Positions 1,729 to 32,044 of a stretch of DNA of 41,714 nucleotides are shown piece after piece. A program made the position numbers and the translations under genes. Source of the DNA: a plasmid. The stretch lies in NCBI RefSeq assembly GCF_055900595.2, contig NZ_JBVWEU010000004.1. One strand, 5' to 3'. The notes beneath the pieces were generated by a model. That model had not been told where the DNA came from. It saw only the letters and a list, made by a program, of their open reading frames with translations, and did no database searches. Numbering within the stretch: the stretch's first letter is position 1; the number at the start of each line of letters is the position of its first letter.

Positions 1729-2934
1729 ATGGACAATATTGAGCAGTTACGGAAAGTCGCTACACGTGCAGGTAAGCTTCTGACATCTTTGAGCGAAAGT
1801 ATCCGACAGCAAAAAGAGGAATTGAAGCTTACCGAGTTCTATCAGGAATACAGCAAAGCCGCTCTGTATAAGCTGCCTAAGCTCAGTAAAGGCAGTGTTG
1901 AGTATGCTGTGTCCGAAATGGAAGCCGGTGGCTACATTTTTAAAAAGAAACCTTCTGGTAATACGATGAAATACGCGATGACGATTCAGAATGTCATCGA
2001 TCTGTATAACCATCGTAAAGTACCGAAGTACAGGGATCGCTTCGATAAAGCCTTTACGATTTTTGTATGTAATCTTAAAGGTGGTGGTTCCAAGACAGTT
2101 TCTACCGCTTCATTATCACATGCTTTTCGAGCTCATCCTCAGCTTCTGTTCGAAGACCTGCGTATTCTGGCCATCGATTTCGATCCGCAGGCATCTCTGA
2201 CAATGTTCCTGAGCCATGAGAATTCAGTGGGCTTGGTTGAAAATACGGCTGCTCAGGCCATGCTCCAGAACGTGTCTCGTGAAGAATTACTTTCCGATTT
2301 TATAGTACCGTCTATTATCCCTGGTGTTGATGTAATCCCCGCTTCCATTGACGATGCATTCCTTGCTGAAGGCTGGAAGGGATTGTGTGAAGAACATCTG
2401 CCAGGGAAAAATATTCATGCGGTGCTTAAAGAGAACATTATCGACAAGCTCCAGCATGACTACGACTTTATTTTCCTTGATAGTGGTCCTCACCTTGATG
2501 CGTTCCTGAAAAACTGCATTGGGGCGGCAGACCTGATGTTGACCCCTCTTCCACCGGCGACGGTTGATTTTCATTCTTCCCTGAAGTTTGTGGCCAGCCT
2601 CCCTGCCCTCATAGATTCCATCGAAATGGATGGGCACACCTGCAATCTCATCGGTAATGTCGGCTTCATGTCCAAGATCCTGAACAAGTCTGATCACAAA
2701 ATTTGCCATAGTCAGGCCAAAGAGGTTTTCGGTGCCGATATGCTAGACATGGTTCTGCCAAGACTGGATGGTTTCGAACGTTGTGGGGAGACTTTTGACA
2801 CAGTTATTTCAGCAAATCCAGCAACCTATGATGGAAGTACAGAGGCACTAAAAAGCGCAAAATCAGCAGCGGAAGACTTTGCGAAGGCAGTCTTTGATCG
2901 CATCGAGTTCATTCGTACTAACGGAGGTATGTGA
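1729..2934 (+). CDS. parA: Type Ia partition ATPase ParA (P1 ParA / F SopA family)
   Basis: 401 aa; deviant Walker A KGGGSKT; long N-terminal extension typical of type Ia ParA; overlaps parB by 4 bp. Confidence 0.9.
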   Translation: MDNIEQLRKVATRAGKLLTSLSESIRQQKEELKLTEFYQEYSKAALYKLPKLSKGSVEYAVSEMEAGGYIFKKKPSGNTMKYAMTIQNVIDLYNHRKVPKYRDRFDKAFTIFVCNLKGGGSKTVSTASLSHAFRAHPQLLFEDLRILAIDFDPQASLTMFLSHENSVGLVENTAAQAMLQNVSREELLSDFIVPSIIPGVDVIPASIDDAFLAEGWKGLCEEHLPGKNIHAVLKENIIDKLQHDYDFIFLDSGPHLDAFLKNCIGAADLMLTPLPPATVDFHSSLKFVASLPALIDSIEMDGHTCNLIGNVGFMSKILNKSDHKICHSQAKEVFGADMLDMVLPRLDGFERCGETFDTVISANPATYDGSTEALKSAKSAAEDFAKAVFDRIEFIRTNGGM

Positions 2935-3908
2935 TGTCGAATGAGAAAAGAAAAACCATCGGCAGACAGTTAAATACCCAGGCGTCAATTGCGGAAATGA
3001 CGGACACCGGTAGAAGCCAGGTATTTACCTTAAAAACCGGCAGGAAGGTAACGTTCAGGTTTGTTCGGGTGCCTGCATCTGAAGTTGAAAGTAAGACCTT
3101 CGTAAACCAGGAAAACAACGGAAGAGATCAACTTGCACTGACCAGGGAATCCCTGAAATCCATTATCCAGACGATTAAGTTTCAGCAGTTCTTTCCCTGT
3201 ATTGGTATTAAGCAAAGTGAAAGGATTGAGATACTGGATGGTTCAAGACGGCGAGCCTCAGCAATTTTTGTCCGTACAGGCCTTGATGTAATGGTTACCG
3301 AAGAGCATTTATCAGCTGATGAAGCTCGCCAACTGGCTAAAGATATCCAGACAGCTAAAGAACATAATCTTCGGGAGATTGGCCTGAGATTGATCGCTCT
3401 TAAAGAGTCCGGATTTAATCAAAAGGAAATTGCTGAACTGGAGGGGTTATCTCAAGCTAAAGTTACCAGGGCGCTGCAGGCGGCGGCCGTACCGCAAGAC
3501 TTGATTTCTCTGTTCCCGGTTCAGTCGGAGCTATCGTTTAGTGACTATAAACTTCTTTTAGAAGTTAATGAAAAACTCAGTGAAAAGGGATTAACGCCTG
3601 AAGAACTCATTCAGTCTGTATCAGCTCAGCTCGATGCAATTTTGAGTGAAGGCGAGCGACCAGAAGACGAACAGAAAGCCAGTATACTGAAGCTGATTTC
3701 TCAGGCATCTCAGGCATTGATAGATCCATCTCCCAAGGAAAAGTCAGTGGTTTCCCCACTCTGGTCTTTTGAAGAAAAGGACAAGTTCGCGCGTAAGCGT
3801 GTGAAAGGGCGTACGCTGACTTATGAGTTTAGCCGTATGTCAAAAGTGATTCAGGATGAACTGGACAAGGCTATCAACGAGGTCCTTGACAGAAATTTGA
3901 GTCAATAA
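2931..3908 (+). CDS. parB: Partition centromere-binding protein ParB
   Basis: 325 aa; GSRR motif (ILDGSRRRAS) characteristic of ParB/SopB; translationally coupled to parA. Confidence 0.85.
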   Translation: MMSNEKRKTIGRQLNTQASIAEMTDTGRSQVFTLKTGRKVTFRFVRVPASEVESKTFVNQENNGRDQLALTRESLKSIIQTIKFQQFFPCIGIKQSERIEILDGSRRRASAIFVRTGLDVMVTEEHLSADEARQLAKDIQTAKEHNLREIGLRLIALKESGFNQKEIAELEGLSQAKVTRALQAAAVPQDLISLFPVQSELSFSDYKLLLEVNEKLSEKGLTPEELIQSVSAQLDAILSEGERPEDEQKASILKLISQASQALIDPSPKEKSVVSPLWSFEEKDKFARKRVKGRTLTYEFSRMSKVIQDELDKAINEVLDRNLSQ

Positions 3909-3989: not shown

Positions 3990-5261
3990 TTACGCCAGTT
4001 TCGCTGAAGGAATATCTGACCATCGTGTCGTATAAGCAGGAGAAAGCATCTCCCGTTTCATCTGCCATTCCGGGGCAATACCCCGCCCCGCAAACCATAC
4101 TTTACCCAGCCCTGAGTTGTTGATCCCGTCCAGAACCTTCATCAGCTCAGCACTGTAAGGGCGTGGCGGGCGTTCGTCGAACAGCTGCAGCTGCGAAACG
4201 CCGGAGCCGGTGAAGTCATTCAGCATAACTCCGGCTTTGGCATACCGGTGCCCATCCCTCCAGATACGCTCCAGAGCCGTTGTAGCGGCTGCAATGATGT
4301 CCCTGGTGTCCTGAGTGGGTGTAAGAAGTTTTTCCGTAGCCACGTTGCCGTAGTAAGGCTCTTTAATGGCGAACGGAGACGTTTTGATGAAAACGGAAAT
4401 ATGCCGGCAATACTGGTGCTCTTTACGCAGTTTTTCAGAGGCCCGCTCTGCGTGCTGACAGATAGCCTGACGGAGTGACTCGTACTCCGTGATCTTCACG
4501 CCAAAACTGCGGCTGCAGACAATTTGCTGTTTCGTCGGAGGGGCTTCCTCAAGCGAAAGGCAGCTTTCCCCGTTCAGTTCCCGTACCGTTCGCTCAAGGA
4601 CCACAGAAAAATTTTTGCGGATGAAGGCCGGGTTCGTCAGGGCGAGATCGAGCGCGGTCTTAATGCCCAGTACATTCAGCTTGCGTGCAATACGGTTACC
4701 CACCCCCCAGATTTCTTCAACCGGCTGCAGTGAAAGCAGTTTCCGCGTTCTCTGCGGATTTCCCCTGGTCAGAGCAAGTACGCCACGAAACTGTTTCCAC
4801 TCTTTTGAGGCCCACTGGGCTGATTTTGCGAGGGTCTTCGTTGGTCCGGCGCCCACGCCAATGGTCAGGTGGGTACAGTCATACACGTGCTGACGCAGCT
4901 GCCGGCCGAAGTCCTCAAGCTCCATACAGTGCTCCACGCCGGTCAAATCGAGGAACATCTCATCAATTGAATACTGTTCCACTCTGGGGGCCAGTTCCTC
5001 CAGGCTGTTCATCACGCGCGCCAACATCGAGGCATAAAGTTCATAGTTACTTGAAAACGCATATATTTTTTCCGGGTATCTTTCGTTTTTTATCTGAAAC
5101 CACGGAGTTTCCATTTTGATCCAGGGCTTCGCCTCGGCACTGCGAGCGATTACATTCCCGTCGTTGTTGCTCAGGACGACTATCGGCTTTCCTTTCAAAT
5201 CCGGGCGGAAAACACGTTCACAGCTGGCATAGAAGCTGTTCACATCGGCCAGGGCAAACAT
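3990..5261 (-). CDS. umuC: Error-prone translesion polymerase subunit UmuC (Pol V catalytic subunit, Y-family)
   Basis: 423 aa; N-terminus [22 protein letters not shown] is typical of UmuC/MucB; start overlaps the umuD stop. Confidence 0.9.
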
Positions 5262-5692
5262 CAGTACATCTCCCTCGGGCGGTGGATGATATGCGTGACG
5301 ACGCCAAAGATATCCAGCTCGTCGGGATCAGGATAAATCGGCGACCAGGAGGCATTCATGGGCTGCAGCGTCAGTCGCGGCGTCAGCAGAAGCCGTTTCA
5401 CCGTAAACTCCCCCTGCATGCTGGCGACAACGATATCGCCGTGCCGCGGCTTTTCAGCACTGTCCACAACCAGCAGATCGCCATTGTACAGACTGCCGTC
5501 GGCCATGCTGTCTCCGCTGGCACGCAGGTAGTACGTCGCGCTCGGATGCCGTATGCAGTAATCATGGAGATCCAGATCGGACTCGACATAGTCAGCAGCA
5601 GGGCTGGGAAAACCGCAGCTGGCCAGATCGGCAAACAATGGATGGGCCTGTGGCGGGAGTTCTTTCCCGGTGCTGAAAAGTTGTAGTTTCAT
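5261..5692 (-). CDS. umuD: UmuD (S24 LexA-like self-cleaving protein, Pol V accessory subunit)
   Basis: 143 aa from MKLQLF; [12 protein letters not shown] and the GDSM Ser/Lys dyad region; Shine-Dalgarno AGGAGG upstream. The ORF track over-extends it to 270 aa. Confidence 0.85.
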
Positions 5693-5716
5693 CTTTCCTC
5701 CTGACACTCTAATTTT

Positions 5717-5734
5717 ACTGGTTATACATACAGT
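5717..5734. promoter_or_regulatory. LexA (SOS) box upstream of umuD
   Basis: ACTGGTTATACATACAGT contains CTG-N10-CAG matching the CTGT-N8-ACAG consensus, 25 bp upstream of the umuD start. Confidence 0.6.
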
Positions 5735-5739
5735 GCTCA

Positions 5740-7680
5740 CCGGGAGACCGGTAGAGATCAAGGGGTGAAAGTCCCCGACCATTGAAGGACCAGCAATCCA
5801 CAAGGTCCCCGAGTCATGCGTTGCATACCGCGAGGTATGGGGCGAAGCGTTGACAGGGGTGTTGACAGGCCAGCCATTGAGCCACGAAATGTATATTAAA
5901 TTACCGGGTGCCGACGTTGTACTGTTAACGGAAGGCAACATCATAGGGTGCGATACTGCGAGTGCCACATGGACCCGGCGGGGTCTGAGACCCTGGCATG
6001 TCAATACGATCTCTACGCGGGAACCGGGAGATCTCCCCTCTGACCATCTGCCAGTGTCGGAGACGGCCCGCACCGGGAAGACGAGGAGTCATAGCCGGTG
6101 ATGTACGGAGAGGAGAAGTCGGACTCGCTCATAGTAGCGGCGAAGCAGGCGAACAACCCGAAAGGAGCGGAGTCAGTGGAGCGAAGGAGCGGGGCCAAGG
6201 GGAACGCGGAACAGCCACACATGCGCCGGACACAGAGCCGGGAAAGCATGTCACAGAGGCTGTCACGCGTGCGGGAAGCTGCGAAGCAGCGGAAGAAAGA
6301 ACGGTTTACAGCATTGTTCCACCTGCTGACAGTCGAAGCACTGGAAGCCGCATTCCTCTCCCTGAGCAGGAAAGCGGCCGCCGGAGTGGATGGCATCAGG
6401 TGGATGGACTACGCCGGAAACATGAAGAACAACATAACAGATCTGCACCGGAGGCTACATTAGGGCAGCTACAGGGCGCAGCCCGGCAGGCGTCACTACA
6501 TCCCAAAAGCGGATGGAAAACAACGCCCGCTCGGCATCGCCTCGCTGGAGGACAAGATCGTCCAGTATGCGCTGGTGAAAATCCTGAACGCAGTCTATGA
6601 AAACGACTTTATGGGGTTCTCATACGGGTTCAGACCCGGGCGAAGCCAGCACGATGCACTGGACGCACTGGCCACAGGGCTGGTACGCACTAACGTAAAC
6701 TGGGTACTGGATGCCGACATCAGTCAGTTCTTCGACAGGGTGAGCCACGAATGGCTGATCAGGTTCACAGAGCATCGGATCGGCGACCGGAGCGTAATCA
6801 GGCTCATACGTAAGTGGCTCACAGCCGGGACGTTGGAGGAGGGTCAATGGCGAGCAACGGAGGAAGGCACCCCACAGGGTGCGGTCATCTCACCGCTGCT
6901 GGCAAACATATACCTCCACTACGTCTTCGATCTGTGGGCGCATCAGTGGCGACGTCGCTATGCCACAGGCAATGTGGTAATGGTCAGATACGCCGATGAC
7001 ATCGTCATCGGGTTCGACAAACGATACGATGCCCGGCGCTTCCGTATAGCCATGCAGCGCAGACTGAGGGAGTTCGGACTCACGGTTCACCCGGAGAAAA
7101 CCCGTCTGATGGAGTTCGGCCGCTTCGCTGCCGAAAACCGTGCCATCAGGGGAAAAGGCAAACCAGAAACGTTCAACTTCCTCGGGTTCACGCACATCAG
7201 CGGGAAAGATCGCAACGGCAGGTTCATGCTGATACGAAAGACCCGCCGGGATCGGATGACGGCAACTCTGAAAGCCATCAAAGACGGTCTGCGAAGGCGC
7301 TGGCATTACTCAATCCCCGAACAGGGAAAATGGCTCAGGAGAGTGGTTCAGGGATACCTGAACTATCACTCGGTACCGGGCAACTTCCCCACCATGCAGA
7401 AGTTCAGGACACACGTAACAAACCTCTGGCGCCGGGCGCTCAGGCGCAGGAGCCAGAAGGATGATACGACCTGGACGAAAGCAAACAAACTGGCAGCCGC
7501 ATGGCTACCAAGGGTTCGGGTTCTTCATCCATGGCCTGTGGAGCGGTTCACCGCCAGACACCCGAGGCAGGAGCCCGGTGCGTAAATCGCGCACGCCGGG
7601 ATCTGTGCGGGGGGTATCCGGTAACGGGTATCCCTACCGCGACATATTTAACAGCGTGACGATAATCCAGATCGCCTGCC
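5740..7680 (+). mobile_element. Group II intron remnant (maturase-encoding; 5' RNA domains probably truncated, 3' end abuts IS1)
   Basis: Reverse transcriptase/maturase ORF with structured GC-rich RNA-like sequence on both sides; only about 360 nt lie between the LexA box and the ORF start, less than a typical domain I-III. Confidence 0.6.
6098..7588 (+). pseudogene. Group II intron reverse transcriptase/maturase interrupted by an in-frame TAG at 6464-6466
   Basis: ORFs 6098-6463 and 6575-7585 are in the same frame; translation across the gap reads ...[38 protein letters not shown]..., i.e. one stop codon inside a contiguous RT domain; YADD motif present downstream. Confidence 0.75.
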
Positions 7681-7736
7681 GGATAATGGTGCCAACTTAC
7701 TGATTTAGTGTACGATGGTGTCTTTGAGGTGCTCCA

Positions 7737-8012
7737 GTGGCTTCCATCTCCATCAGTTGTCCCTCCTGCTCAGCTACTGAAGGCGTGGTGCGTAACGGTA
7801 AAAGTACTGCCGGACATCAGCGCTATCTCTGCTCTCACTGCCGTAAAACATGGCAGCTACAGTTCACTTACACCGCCTCTCAGCCCGGTACGCACCAGAA
7901 AATCATTGATATGGCCATGAATGGCGTTGGATGCCGGGCAACCGCCCGCATTATGGGCGTTGGCCTCAACACGATTTTACGTCACTTAAAAAACTCAGAC
8001 CGCAGTCGGTAA
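7737..8012 (+). CDS. insA: IS1 InsA
   Basis: 91 aa, [40 protein letters not shown] zinc-finger N-terminus. Confidence 0.9.
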
Positions 8013-8434
8013 CCTCACGCATACAACCGGGCAGTGACGTCATTGTCTGCGCGGAAATGGACGAACAGTGGGGCTACGTCGGGGCTAAATCACGTCAGCG
8101 CTGGTTATTTTACGCCTATGGCAGGATGTGCAGGACGGTGGTGGCACGCGTCTTTGGTGAGCGTACTCTGGCCACGCTGGAGCGTCTTCCGGGCCTGCTG
8201 TCGGCCTTTGAGGTCGTGGTATGGATGACGGATGGCTGGCCGCTTTATGAATCCCGCCTGAAGGGAGAACTGCACGTTATCAGCAAGCGATATACGCAGC
8301 GAATTGAGCGGCATAACCAGAATCTGAGGCAGCATCTGGCAAGGCTGGGCAGGAAGTCACTGTCGTTCTCAAAATCGGTGGCGCTGCATGACAAAGTCAT
8401 CGGGCATTATCTGAACATAAAACACTATCAGTAA
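7931..8434 (+). CDS. insB: IS1 InsB' frame (expressed as an InsAB' transposase fusion by -1 frameshift)
   Basis: 167-aa ORF overlapping the insA 3' end in the -1 frame, standard IS1 organisation. Confidence 0.8.
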
Positions 8435-8448
8435 GTTGGAGTCATTAC

Positions 8449-8752
8449 CAACCAGTTCACCACCTACTCGCTCCGCGATTGTGGCAGTCTTCGAAATCCC
8501 CGGACGATCCGCCTTTATGAAAGTCTTGCTCAATTCAAATCTTCAGGCTTATGGGTTACTACTCATGCTTGGTTAAATGACCGTTTCGTCTTACCGGAAT
8601 CCCAGCAGAAGAACTTGGCAGAGTTGAAACGATCTTTCCTTGATCCTGCACTCAAGCAGATAAATGAGAAAACACCTTTACTTGCTAAGTATAGTATTGA
8701 TGATTCAGGAAAATTTCTGTTCTCAATAATTGATAAGCAAAATCCCGTCTGA
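8449..8752 (+). pseudogene. 3' fragment (about 97 codons) of a second RepE-family rep gene, truncated by IS1
   Basis: Frame starting at 8462 translates ...TYSLRDCGSLRNPRTIRLYESLAQFKSSGLWVTTHAWLNDRFVLPESQQKNLAELKRSFLDPALKQINEKTPL..., paralogous to the C-terminus of the rep at 1-867; no start codon, begins at the IS1 end. Confidence 0.7.
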
Positions 8753-26716: not shown

Positions 26717-27730
26717 CTACCTCTCACTAGTGAGGGGCGGCAGCGCATCAAGCGGTGAGCGCACTCCGGCACCGCCAACTTTCAGCACATGCGTGTAAAT
26801 CATCGTCGTAGAGACGTCGGAATGGCCGAGCAGATCCTGCACGGTTCGAATGTCGTAACCGCTGCGGAGCAAGGCCGTCGCGAACGAGTGGCGGAGGGTG
26901 TGCGGTGTGGCGGGCTTCGTGATGCCTGCTTGTTCTACGGCACGTTTGAAGGCGCGCTGAAAGGTCTGGTCATACATGTGATGGCGACGCACGACACCGC
27001 TCCGTGGATCGGTCGAATGCGTGTGCTGCGCAAAAACCCAGAACCACGGCCAGGAATGCCCGGCGCGCGGATACTTCCGCTCAAGGGCGTCGGGAAGCGC
27101 AACGCCGCTGCGGCCCTCGGCCTGGTCCTTCAGCCACCATGCCCGTGCACGCGACAGCTGCTCGCGCAGGCTGGGTGCCAAGCTCTCGGGTAACATCAAG
27201 GCCCGATCCTTGGAGCCCTTGCCCTCCCGCACGATGATCGTGCCGTGATCGAAATCCAGATCCTTGACCCGCAGTTGCAAACCCTCACTGATCCGCATGC
27301 CCGTTCCATACAGAAGCTGGGCGAACAAACGATGCTCGCCTTCCAGAAAACCGAGGATGCGAACCACTTCATCCGGGGTCAGCACCACCGGCAAGCGCCG
27401 CGACGGCCGAGGTCTTCCGATCTCCTGAAGCCAGGGCAGATCCGTGCACAGCACCTTGCCGTAGAAGAACAGCAAGGCCGCCAATGCCTGACGATGCGTG
27501 GAGACCGAAACCTTGCGCTCGTTCGCCAGCCAGGACAGAAATGCCTCGACTTCGCTGCTGCCCAAGGTTGCCGGGTGACGCACACCGTGGAAACGGATGA
27601 AGGCACGAACCCAGTTGACATAAGCCTGTTCGGTTCGTAAACTGTAATGCAAGTAGCGTATGCGCTCACGCAACTGGTCCAGAACCTTGACCGAACGCAG
27701 CGGTGGTAACGGCGCAGTGGCGGTTTTCAT
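26717..27730 (-). CDS. intI1: Class 1 integron integrase IntI1
   Basis: 337 aa full length; tyrosine recombinase motifs; Arg32/Asn39 variant. Confidence 0.95.
27615..27643 (+). promoter_or_regulatory. Integron cassette promoter Pc, strong variant (TTGACA-N17-TAAACT)
   Basis: -35 at 27615-27620 and -10 at 27638-27643, inside intI1 on the cassette strand. Confidence 0.7.
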
Positions 27731-27874
27731 GGCTTGTTATGACTGTTTTTTTGTACAGTCTATGCCTCGGGCATCCAAGCAGCAAGCGCGTTACGCCGTG
27801 GGTCGATGTTTGATGTTATGGAGCAGCAACGATGTTACGCAGCAGGGCAGACGCCCTAAAACAAAGTTAGCCAT

Positions 27875-28372
27875 ATGAACTCGGAATCAGTACGCATTTA
27901 TCTCGTTGCTGCGATGGGAGCCAATCGGGTTATTGGCAATGGTCCTAATATCCCCTGGAAAATTCCGGGTGAGCAGAAGATTTTTCGCAGACTCACTGAG
28001 GGAAAAGTCGTTGTCATGGGGCGAAAGACCTTTGAGTCTATCGGCAAGCCTCTACCGAACCGTCACACATTGGTAATCTCACGCCAAGCTAACTACCGCG
28101 CCACTGGCTGCGTAGTTGTTTCAACGCTGTCGCACGCTATCGCTTTGGCATCCGAACTCGGCAATGAACTCTACGTCGCGGGCGGAGCTGAGATATACAC
28201 TCTGGCACTACCTCACGCCCACGGCGTGTTTCTATCTGAGGTACATCAAACCTTCGAGGGTGACGCCTTCTTCCCAATGCTCAACGAAACAGAATTCGAG
28301 CTTGTCTCAACCGAAACCATTCAAGCTGTAATTCCGTACACCCACTCCGTTTATGCGCGTCGAAACGGCTAA
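27875..28372 (+). CDS. dfrA12: Trimethoprim-resistant dihydrofolate reductase, dfrA12-like
   Basis: 165 aa, MNSESVRIYLVAAMGANRVIGNGPNIPWKIPGEQ; first cassette after attI1. Confidence 0.9.
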   Translation: MNSESVRIYLVAAMGANRVIGNGPNIPWKIPGEQKIFRRLTEGKVVVMGRKTFESIGKPLPNRHTLVISRQANYRATGCVVVSTLSHAIALASELGNELYVAGGAEIYTLALPHAHGVFLSEVHQTFEGDAFFPMLNETEFELVSTETIQAVIPYTHSVYARRNG

Positions 28373-28470
28373 CCATTCCGTCAACGGGACGCCAAAATGC
28401 TGCGCATTTTGGTTCCCTCCGCTGCGCTCCGGCTCTCGTTACGTCCAACGTTAGCACCACTGAAACCCAG
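28373..28470 (+). other. attC recombination site of the dfrA12 cassette
   Basis: Imperfect inverted-repeat structure ending in GTTAGC-type core after the dfrA12 stop. Confidence 0.5.
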
Positions 28471-28483
28471 CTTTATTTAGCTC

Positions 28484-28774
28484 ATGTTTATTCAAACGGC
28501 ATTTAGCTTTTCAGGCGTTATTCAGTGCCTGTTTTGCCTTTTTTCCGGGCTTCGCCTGCATGGGCTGCGCAGGTTTTCAGTCTTTTTGGCCTCTAGCCCT
28601 TGCGTAGCAAGCGCAAGCAGCTATCGTTTTTGCAGTGCTGTGCCGCCTCGGTGGCGCAGCGTTTTTTCACGGTTAGCGCCCGTCGCCAAATTCAAGTTAT
28701 CCGTTTTGGCTTCTGGTTCTAACATTTCGGTCAAGCCGACCCGCATTCTGCGGTCGGCTTACCTCGCCCGTTAG
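28484..28774 (+). CDS. Cassette ORF of unknown function (orfF/gcuF)
   Basis: 96-aa ORF between dfrA12 and aadA, in the position of the known dfrA12-orfF-aadA2 array. Confidence 0.6.
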   Translation: MFIQTAFSFSGVIQCLFCLFSGLRLHGLRRFSVFLASSPCVASASSYRFCSAVPPRWRSVFSRLAPVAKFKLSVLASGSNISVKPTRILRSAYLAR

Positions 28775-28779
28775 ACATC

Positions 28780-29571
28780 ATGAGGGAAGCGGTGACCATC
28801 GAAATTTCGAACCAACTATCAGAGGTGCTAAGCGTCATTGAGCGCCATCTGGAATCAACGTTGCTGGCCGTGCATTTGTACGGCTCCGCAGTGGATGGCG
28901 GCCTGAAGCCATACAGCGATATTGATTTGTTGGTTACTGTGGCCGTAAAGCTTGATGAAACAACGCGGCGAGCTTTGATCAACGACCTTTTGGAAACTTC
29001 GGCTTCCCCTGGAGAGAGCGAGATTCTCCGCGCTGTAGAAGTCACCATTGTTGTGCACGACGACATCATTCCGTGGCGTTATCCAGCTAAGCGCGAACTG
29101 CAATTTGGAGAATGGCAGCGCAATGACATTCTTGCAGGTATCTTCGAGCCAGCCACGATCGACATTGATCTGGCTATCTTGCTGACAAAAGCAAGAGAAC
29201 ATAGCGTTGCCTTGGTAGGTCCAGCGGCGGAGGAACTCTTTGATCCGGTTCCTGAACAGGATCTATTTGAGGCGCTAAATGAAACCTTAACGCTATGGAA
29301 CTCGCCGCCCGACTGGGCTGGCGATGAGCGAAATGTAGTGCTTACGTTGTCCCGCATTTGGTACAGCGCAGTAACCGGCAAAATCGCGCCGAAGGATGTC
29401 GCTGCCGACTGGGCAATGGAGCGCCTGCCGGCCCAGTATCAGCCCGTCATACTTGAAGCTAGACAGGCTTATCTTGGACAAGAAGAAGATCGCTTGGCCT
29501 CCCGCGCAGATCAGTTGGAAGAATTTGTTCACTACGTGAAAGGCGAGATCACCAAGGTAGTCGGCAAATAA
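28780..29571 (+). CDS. aadA: Aminoglycoside (3'')(9) adenylyltransferase AadA, apparently mosaic (aadA2-like 5' end, aadA1-like remainder)
   Basis: 263 aa; residues about 1-65 (TIEISNQLSEVLSV...VAVKLDETTRR) resemble aadA2, the remaining about 200 aa match my recollection of aadA1 (RLASRADQLEEFVHYVKGEITKVVGK). Confidence 0.9.
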   Translation: MREAVTIEISNQLSEVLSVIERHLESTLLAVHLYGSAVDGGLKPYSDIDLLVTVAVKLDETTRRALINDLLETSASPGESEILRAVEVTIVVHDDIIPWRYPAKRELQFGEWQRNDILAGIFEPATIDIDLAILLTKAREHSVALVGPAAEELFDPVPEQDLFEALNETLTLWNSPPDWAGDERNVVLTLSRIWYSAVTGKIAPKDVAADWAMERLPAQYQPVILEARQAYLGQEEDRLASRADQLEEFVHYVKGEITKVVGK

Positions 29572-31252: not shown

Positions 31253-32044
31253 CTAACCAAGGGCTTTGGATATTTTCAAGGCATCTGATAAAGACTTAAC
31301 ATCATGGGTGCGGAGATAATCTGCACCTTTTTTGTATGCATACATTTCTGCTGCAAGAGTTGGTGCTAAACGAGATTTCACATCGGTTCCAGTTATTTTA
31401 CCTAAGAATGATTTCCGTGACACTGCAATCATTACTTGCAAATTAAAAGCTTCTTGAATTTCAGGGAAACGCTTCAAAACAAGAATAGATGTTTCTGGAT
31501 TAGAGCCTAAAAAGAAGCCCATACCCGGATCAAGAATAATTCGTTCACGCTTTACACCAGCCTCAACTAAAGCAGCAATTCTTTCTTTAAAAAATTCCAT
31601 CATGGAAGTAAAAACCTCTTCCGGATTCGTTTCAACTTTAGTAGCTGCACCAATTCGCTGAACGGAGTGCATCAACACAAGTTTGCAATCTGACTTTGCC
31701 AAGCCTGAATAAATCTCAGGATAAGGAAAACCTTGAATATCATTAATAAAATCAACCTTTTGTTCTATGCAAAAACTCTGAACCTCAGGTTTAAATGTAT
31801 CAACAGAAATAGAAATGCCTTTTTCTTTTAAAGCCTTAATGACAGGTTTGAGTCTTTTGATTTCTTCCACAACGCCCACTTCAGTTGTATCAGGATTACT
31901 GGAAGCGGCTCCCAAATCAATCACATCTGCTCCATCTTCAACCAAATGCAGAGCATGCTCAATTGCCTTATCTGTATCTAAATAAAGTCCTCCATCGGAA
32001 AAACTATCGGTGGTTATATTTACGATTCCAAAAATCTTGCTCAT
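31253..32044 (-). CDS. sul3: Sulfonamide-resistant dihydropteroate synthase Sul3
   Basis: 263 aa, MSKIFGIVNITTDSFSDGG; low-GC context. Confidence 0.9.
   Translation of the reverse strand: MSKIFGIVNITTDSFSDGGLYLDTDKAIEHALHLVEDGADVIDLGAASSNPDTTEVGVVEEIKRLKPVIKALKEKGISISVDTFKPEVQSFCIEQKVDFINDIQGFPYPEIYSGLAKSDCKLVLMHSVQRIGAATKVETNPEEVFTSMMEFFKERIAALVEAGVKRERIILDPGMGFFLGSNPETSILVLKRFPEIQEAFNLQVMIAVSRKSFLGKITGTDVKSRLAPTLAAEMYAYKKGADYLRTHDVKSLSDALKISKALG

Follow-up and report, generated by a model that had tools for sequence, protein, structure and literature searches.

A group II intron at the LexA operator of a plasmid-borne umuDC operon and a candidate hybrid promoter at their junction

Introduction

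Is a umuDC operon under SOS control when the LexA operator in front of it directly abuts a mobile intron? The question is raised by a plasmid stretch of 41,714 nucleotides (contig NZ_JBVWEU010000004.1 of assembly GCF_055900595.2; this whole stretch is called the window below), in which a umuD-umuC pair and its LexA (SOS) box lie next to a copy of the group II intron Kl.pn.I5. An earlier note on this DNA had read positions 3990-5734 as a umuDC-like mutagenesis operon with an SOS box and took it to indicate SOS-inducible translesion synthesis carried on a resistance plasmid, which may raise mutation supply under antibiotic stress. The coordinates are correct, the operon lying on the minus strand, which the note had left unstated, and position 5734 is the exon/intron junction. 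The interpretation stands in part: an intact Pol V-type pair with a strong operator is indeed carried on a multiresistance plasmid, but its promoter context is not simple, with the box abutting a 1.9-kb intron. Based on comparison of the sequences, we consider it likely that umuDC is a module of the IncR backbone, that its LexA operator is the homing site of Kl.pn.I5, and that the predicted native promoter, split by the intron, has been replaced by a LexA-repressible hybrid promoter.

Results

An Intact umuD-umuC Pair Behind a Strong LexA Box

The following features make up the operon and its upstream region:

3990-5261, minus strand: umuC-like gene of a Y-family DNA polymerase, 423 aa
5261-5692, minus strand: umuD-like gene of an S24 autoproteolytic subunit, 143 aa
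5697-5702, minus strand: Shine-Dalgarno sequence AGGAGG, 4 nt 5' of the umuD ATG, read from the sequence
5716-5735: LexA (SOS) box, CACTGTATGTATAACCAGTA in the minus-strand reading, core CTG-N10-CAG at 5718-5733, identical with the 5'-exon homing site of the intron

The overlapping pair described in the earlier note could be confirmed. The umuD gene lies 5' of umuC, and its stop codon overlaps the umuC start by one base in the sequence TGATG (5259-5263, with the A at 5261); both open reading frames (ORFs) are intact and both products pass their family models. The UmuC-like protein contains the Pfam domains IMS, IMS_C and DUF4113 and reaches 794.8 bits with the NCBIfam UmuC subfamily model NF002955 (cut-off 431), while every DinB/Pol IV model stayed under its cut-off. 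Aligned to E. coli UmuC, it keeps D6, D100-E101 (within SIDE) and a clamp motif, QLQLF, at 357-361; we take the corresponding E. coli positions to be D6, D101 and E102 and the beta-clamp motif to be QLNLF. The UmuD-like protein matches Pfam Peptidase_S24 and NCBIfam NF007621 (144 bits, cut-off 110) and can be aligned to the UmuD structures PDB 8gmt and 1umu. Its cleavage site C26-G27 and the residues S62 and K99 align with C24-G25, S60 and K97 of the E. coli protein.

The pair thus resembles the chromosomal umuDC of E. coli in gene order, in the 1-nt TGATG overlap, in its domains, in the Ser-Lys dyad and Cys-Gly site of UmuD, in the catalytic Asp/Glu residues and QLxLF clamp motif of UmuC and in having a LexA box in the promoter region. 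It differs in being plasmid-borne and in its sequence, with 59% identity to E. coli UmuD and 64% to UmuC of E. coli K-12. With all catalytic and cleavage residues retained, the two proteins look functional. In a translesion polymerase of the Pol V type, UmuD would be the self-cleaving S24 subunit and UmuC the catalytic one, of the Y family, and the two genes are probably translationally coupled via TGATG.

The same residues bear on a different view of what the operon is for. It might be expressed and LexA-controlled, yet selected not for mutagenesis but for protecting the replication of plasmid or host, through damage tolerance or a checkpoint of the UmuD2C type. Uncleaved UmuD2C does act in a checkpoint in E. 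coli, which is established knowledge (cf. PMC4045847), and umuCD is labelled "stability" in the IncR literature (PMC7707992). However, that label is given there without data, and the conservation of all UmuD-cleavage and polymerase residues argues for an active Pol V. We therefore regard a checkpoint role as very unlikely to be the one under selection.

The LexA box was scored with a matrix made from 19 E. coli boxes known from the literature. The site at 5716-5735 reaches 24.06 bits and is the top site of the 41.7-kb window; the maximum of 200 shuffles was 18.3 bits, and real boxes span 13-28 bits, so that the value falls within their upper range. A loose CTGT-N8-ACAG pattern with one mismatch allowed was uninformative (14 matches against 12.6 expected), and the matrix score was used instead. 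From the core to the umuD ATG (5692) there are exactly 25 nt, the distance given in the earlier note, and the box is conserved in two intron-less relatives (L003 and L004). Because a high-affinity-type LexA operator precedes the operon, LexA repression is expected: the host LexA would repress umuDC, and RecA-stimulated cleavage of LexA would induce it.

Kl.pn.I5 Splits the Predicted Ancestral umuD Promoter

The box alone is no proof of SOS-inducible expression in this plasmid, because the intron splits the best-scoring ancestral promoter candidate. The intron and its surroundings comprise:

5735-7643, plus strand: group II intron Kl.pn.I5 (= Se.ma.I1), 1909 nt, full length, antisense to umuDC
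5768-5993, plus strand: ribozyme domains D1-D4 (Rfam group-II-D1D4-6, RF02005; 186.6 bits, gathering threshold 49, E = 7e-55, full model length)
5921-5925, plus strand: candidate exon-binding site 1 (EBS1), ACUGU, in the loop of a D1 hairpin; its complement is the intron-binding site 1 (IBS1), ACAGU, with which the LexA box ends
6098-7585, plus strand: ltrA reverse transcriptase/maturase gene (Pfam RVT_1) with an in-frame stop at 6461-6463
7644-7680, minus strand: 3' exon, the displaced upstream part of the ancestral umuD promoter region, with predicted TAT of the -10 at 7644-7646 and the -35 TGGATT at 7664-7669; an IS1-like element follows from 7681

The limits of the intron were set by alignment with other copies and by the empty site in the intron-less L003. 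Intron-less IncFII(K) plasmids read ...CATACAGT/ATATTTAACAGCG..., and the window reads ...CATACAGT-intron-ATATTTAACAGCG... at the same place. The insertion is clean, without target duplication, and lies directly after the ...ACAGT of the LexA box. A 3' truncation of the intron by IS1 was ruled out, as the alignment shows a complete intron and IS1 begins 37 nt further on. The window copy differs from the intron of CP023932 at 8 of 1910 positions (99.6% identity), and the latter has been called Se.ma.I1, "also called Kl.pn.I5" (PMC6764390). Kl.pn.I5 is an entry of the Zimmerly database, and its reference copy itself sits in an IncR plasmid, pK245 (PMC3522654). In an identical copy, aligned to the Rfam structure, GUACUGUU falls in the D1 hairpin loop, and it is plausible that the ACUGU in this loop is the EBS1 that pairs with ACAGU. 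The Rfam D5-D6 model gave no match on an intact intron copy even at E<=1.

Promoters were scored with a frequency-weighted sigma-70 matrix with consensus frequencies known from the literature. In the intron-less L003 and L004 the best candidate is TGGATT-17-TATACT with a score of 9.88, which may be compared with 10.39 for the E. coli umuDC promoter (TTGATC-17-TACTGT) and 9.57 for that of mucAB on R46 (TTGCCA-18-TACTGT). Placing the -10 of E. coli umuDC at a TATAAC 3' of the box was ruled out, K-12 reading TTGATC-17-TACTGT. The insertion point lies inside the ancestral -10 (TAT/ACT). By entering the operator antisense to umuDC, Kl.pn.I5 shifted the predicted -35 TGGATT, together with the first three nucleotides of the predicted -10 TATACT, to a position now 1.9 kb from umuD.

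A Candidate Hybrid Promoter Brackets the LexA Box

A matrix scan of the junction returned two hexamers that flank the box:

5712-5717, minus strand: candidate -10 TAAAAT, directly 3' of the LexA core
5735-5740, minus strand: candidate -35 GTGAGC, formed by intron nt 1-6 in their mutated state

The combination GTGAGC-17-TAAAAT scores 10.38, and the LexA core fills its spacer. In this plasmid, each strand has on average 0.24 scores of 10.38 or more per kb, equivalent to a chance of about 1.4% within 60 nt. With an unmutated intron end, the best box-flanking candidate reaches only 4.2. The 5' end of the window intron reads GCTCA (GCUCA in the RNA), whereas of 47 full-length copies analysed 44 have the conserved GTGCG (GUGYG). 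Intron 5'-end alleles of the IncR lineage form a nested series, given here from the conserved sequence to that of the window. Each line gives the allele, its reading on the umuD strand (17 nt 5' of TAAAAT), the predicted promoter score, the records in the plasmid collection and the matches at least 99% identical to the IncR-exon query:

GTGCG; GCGCAC; 4.2; 1870 records (as GTGCGCC, in any exon context); 371 matches
GTTCG; GCGAAC; 6.4; 155 records; 143 matches
GTTCA; GTGAAC; 10.38; 401 records; 380 matches
GCTCA (window); GTGAGC; 10.38; 3 records; 3 matches

Compared with the family consensus, the window intron has 7 substitutions in 1909 nt, three of which fall at nt 2, 3 and 5. We estimate the chance of such clustering at about 6e-7 in a given 5-nt window, or about 2e-4 if the choice of window is allowed for. 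The last 60 nt of the intron are identical to those of other copies. We propose that these stepwise substitutions killed the 5' splice site and at the same time created GTGAAC and then GTGAGC 17 nt 5' of TAAAAT. The resulting hybrid promoter, with an intron-derived -35 and the LexA box in its spacer, would drive umuDC and would still be repressible by LexA. SOS control of umuDC in the window is plausible on these grounds. Mutagenesis by its products is likewise plausible.

A further difference lies in ltrA, where CAG has changed to TAG at 6461-6463 (codon 122 of 495; C730T relative to the family consensus). This stop is common to the window and pTRE-1611 (L002) and absent in pKPS30 (L001), which has an intact 495-aa ORF. 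With its splice site mutated and a nonsense codon in ltrA, the Kl.pn.I5 copy of the window is probably a dead fossil.

The split promoter also invites the view that the umuDC genes are real but silent, or nearly so: the intron would have removed the promoter, the LexA box would be a leftover, and the genes would be carried passively in the IncR backbone. The insertion does split the best ancestral promoter candidate, a simple scan finds no consensus promoter, and in more than 1000 other plasmids an intron copy whose 5' end is unmutated lies antisense at this position, without a good -10 downstream. However, both ORFs are intact and identical over hundreds of intron-bearing plasmids from several genera, the candidate promoter that brackets the LexA box equals the E. 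coli umuDC promoter in predicted strength, and the intron substitutions cluster exactly at the -35. On balance we think a silent operon unlikely and favor replacement of the split promoter by the hybrid one.

Several points speak against this replacement. The changes at the intron 5' end could have been selected for, or tolerated, through inactivation of the intron and not through creation of a promoter. The third substitution, T2C, which defines the window allele and its three records, brings no predicted promoter gain, and the -35 hexamer agrees with TTGACA at only 3 of 6 positions. Both the LexA and the promoter matrices rest on sites or frequencies as generally known from the literature. 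The simple consensus scan returned 0 promoters at the window junction; it also returned 0 in the intron-less relative, and this negative is uninformative because its thresholds would miss the E. coli umuDC promoter (TTGATC/TACTGT = 7/12). The dN/dS values against about 90%-identical IncFII(K) homologues, 0.05 for umuD and 0.07 for umuC, indicate that both genes are under purifying selection, but they mostly reflect divergence older than the intron insertion. Finally, a literature search for functional work on the IncR umuDC (expression, LexA binding, mutagenesis) found no such study.

Kl.pn.I5 Copies Are Found at SOS Operators

Other copies of the intron were collected by scanning public collections with a 28-nt motif that begins 18-19 nt inside the intron. 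A scan of one genome per species gave only 4 loci; metagenome and viral collections were much richer. The resulting set holds 158 intron copies with 111 distinct 30-nt 5' flanks, including the window and plasmid loci. Nearly all of these flanks (108 of 111) reach 13 bits or more with the LexA matrix in an identical register (...CAGT/GTGCG), against a background of 4e-4. In the 5' exon, CTGT at -17 to -14 and ACAGT at -5 to -1 are present in 100-111 of the 111 sites, position by position, the ACAGT positions alone in 103-111. Strong conservation is also seen at -13 to -9, and of the 29 sites for which a 3' exon was available, 25 have A at +1. As judged by its flanks, Kl.pn.I5 inserts almost only at SOS operators.

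The genes beside the insertions are diverse. They include at least 4 umuD families, dinI-like genes, a bacteriocin of the cloacin/colicin-E3 type and small prophage proteins (phrog_3893), and in plasmid records the same intron stands beside other umuD genes in either orientation. Single gene families have been invaded in both orientations (L006 versus L020, L044 versus L091). Entry from either side of the box is what a palindromic target would lead one to expect. At 61 of the 111 sites a TTGnnn lies 16-18 nt 5' of the TACTGT half-box and reads into the intron, an arrangement also seen in E. coli umuDC (TTGATC-17-TACTGT); because of this architecture we conclude that most copies lie in sense orientation just 3' of the -10 of an SOS promoter. 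Overall, at least 61 of the 111 sites are sense, 22 are antisense, as in the window, and 28 are unclassified.

A conserved homing site from -25 to +10 and a "saturation" in K. pneumoniae MGH have been inferred (Leclercq and Cordaux, 2012; PMC3522654), and new Kl.pn.I5 insertions were seen during a hospital outbreak (PMC8269217). In the searchable literature, with subscription-only papers outside it, we found no paper in which LexA or SOS boxes are connected with Kl.pn.I5 or with group II introns in general. The text of PMC3522654 has zero occurrences of LexA or SOS, and PMC8269217 and PMC6764390 likewise make no such link.

We put forward tentatively, and with more doubt than belief, a wider scheme in which Kl.pn.I5, as a retroelement, has LexA operators as its homing targets, is damage-induced when inserted in sense, and was exapted as the umuDC -35 in its antisense IncR copy. 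In this scheme EBS1 ACUGU would pair with the ACAGU half-site, and the palindrome would permit the use of either strand. Sense copies, a few nucleotides 3' of the SOS promoter -10, would have their transcription, splicing and mobility turned on by DNA damage, and splicing would restore the host gene. Antisense copies would decapitate the promoter, and in the IncR copy the dead 5' splice site would have been exapted as a -35 via point mutations.

The hexamer TTGATC, the -35 in 35 of the 61 sense-type target promoters and also in E. coli umuDC, occurs inside the intron as well (antisense, intron nt 23-28; window 5757-5762, minus strand), 18 nt 5' of a hexamer that spans the junction. Transcription of umuDC could start from an outward promoter within the intron, for which Pout of group IIC-attC introns would be a precedent (PMC3001079). 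Unmutated copies read TTGATC-18-CACACT, with a score of 7.52. A score of 7.5, however, arises 2.5 times per kb by chance, and in the window T2C removes the key A at position 2 of the -10 (AGCACT). Conservation of TTGATC is not assessable from the copies, the hexamer being part of the search pattern. An intron-internal start seems to us quite improbable, and the hybrid promoter across the LexA box remains our preferred explanation.

Some loci of the set deserve mention in their own right. The three sites that fall below the LexA threshold (L054, L055 and L076) score -3.9, 7.1 and 8.2 bits; L055 and L076 end in CAGT and L054 in TTGT. They are possibly ectopic retrotranspositions and could help to define a minimal target. 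In the IMG/VR contig L112, an apparent intron unit of 236 nt (from the 5' motif to the 3'-end motif) is followed by another intron 5' end, GTGCGCCGGGAGACCGGTAAAGATC..., which may represent tandem or nested introns. Two loci, L161 (CP023932, 300-2330) and L010, are small ColE1-type cloacin plasmids with a sense intron between the SOS box (TTGACA-17-TAAGGT ... TACTGTGTATATGTACAGT) and the cloacin gene. Bacteriocin expression in these plasmids should depend on splicing of the intron.

The Operon Is Part of the IncR Backbone

From the IncR typing of the identical records pKPS30 and pTRE-1611 it follows that the window belongs to the IncR plasmids; it carries multiple resistances. Besides the operon and the intron, its backbone contains:

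1-867: repB
1729-2934 and 2931-3908: parAB ORFs

These three ORFs, together with those at 3990-5261, 5261-5692 and 6098-7585, are collinear with and 100% identical to those of pKPS30 and pTRE-1611. More than 5000 plasmid records match the 2.2-kb umuDC region, at least 1960 of them over 80% or more of its length. It is 100% identical in many Klebsiella, E. coli and Salmonella plasmids, where RefSeq labels the genes as umuD and Y-family polymerase. The IncR backbone has been described as repB-parAB-umuCD-retA, with umuCD and retA counted as backbone genes (PMC7707992). In sequence and synteny the window is identical to this IncR/IncFII(K) backbone module, without material difference. Since thousands of plasmid records contain the same DNA and umuCD has long been counted among the IncR backbone modules, a umuDC operon with an SOS box on an IncR plasmid is already known and ordinary. 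What sets the window apart from other IncR records is the intron substitution T2C (3 records) and the ltrA nonsense codon, the latter also present in pTRE-1611.

The IS1-like element (IS1X3 family in the pKPS30 annotation) extends over about 7681-8450, starting 37 nt past the intron 3' end. At this position the intron-less IncFII(K) relatives have, instead, sequence that leads toward a divergent parM partition operon.

The resistance cargo spans 12015-33659 and includes a truncated Tn3-family transposase, tet(A) (15216-16490), blaTEM (17980-18840), intI1-dfrA12-aadA (26717-29571) and sul3 (31253-32044). Together with the IncR typing, these genes bear out the designation as a resistance plasmid in the earlier note. 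The second-best LexA site of the window, GACTGTTTTTTTGTACAGTC (27741-27760), scores 16.25 bits and has intI1 (26717-27730, minus strand) on one side and, on the other, an Rfam match to attI/AAC_AAD_leader (27820-27898). From its position it is expected to be an SOS box of the known type at the integrase gene intI1 of class 1 integrons. This site ends in ACAGT, yet it holds no intron.

Discussion

Operons of the umuDC type with SOS boxes have been known on resistance plasmids since mucAB and impCAB, and mucAB is the classic precedent for plasmid-enhanced SOS mutagenesis, with impCAB, samAB and rumAB as relatives. In itself, a umuDC operon with an SOS box on a resistance plasmid, as stated in the earlier note, is therefore little new. 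The IncR pair shares with mucAB of the IncN plasmids R46 and pKM101 that it is a plasmid-borne umuDC homologue on a resistance plasmid with a LexA box upstream; the corresponding region of R46 reads TTGCCA-18-TACTGTATAAATAAACAGT. By sequence it is nearer to the chromosomal UmuDC (59%/64% identity for UmuD/UmuC) than to MucAB (51% to MucA, 54% to MucB of R46). Moreover, the cleavage site of MucA is Ala-Gly and that of the IncR UmuD is Cys-Gly. The promoter architecture differs from that of E. coli umuDC, in which the box overlaps the -10; in the IncR plasmid the box would lie in the spacer of the predicted hybrid promoter and the -35 would be intron DNA.

The window copy of Kl.pn.I5 differs from other Kl.pn.I5/Se.ma.I1 copies in its mutated 5' splice site and its truncated intron-encoded protein (IEP). 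Among group II introns, those of class C (IIC), which use only EBS1/EBS3 and insert at terminator hairpins or attC sites, are alike in that the target is palindromic regulatory DNA and not a gene-specific sequence, and in that the Kl.pn.I5 IEP lacks an endonuclease domain (only RVT_1 was detected). In IIC-attC introns, antisense insertion can be compensated by promoter elements borne by the intron (PMC3001079). Unlike these introns, Kl.pn.I5 matches the Rfam model D1D4-6, targets the operator of a transcription factor and lies mostly in sense 3' of an SOS promoter -10. Assignment to class C, suggested by the palindromic target and the IEP without endonuclease domain, was considered and dropped: the conserved positions -13 to -9 fit an IBS2, and class C is listed separately in the literature (PMC3522654).

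Sequenced plasmids of Klebsiella, E. coli and Enterobacter carry the umuDC module by the thousand, and with this prevalence in clinical plasmids a direct assay of what it may add to mutation supply under antibiotic stress would be worthwhile. The unexpected element is the specificity of Kl.pn.I5 for SOS boxes, together with a possible exaptation at the IncR junction. An intron that homes to LexA operators would tie a retroelement to the SOS regulon, and such homing predicts that expression and mobility of the intron are inducible by DNA damage. Kl.pn.I5 would be a natural case of a mobile element whose target is a transcription-factor site, and one that may repeatedly rewire the SOS genes of plasmids and prophages, including umuDC, dinI, cloacin and prophage genes. 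The IncR junction would then offer a compact, testable case of promoter repair by exapted intron sequence.

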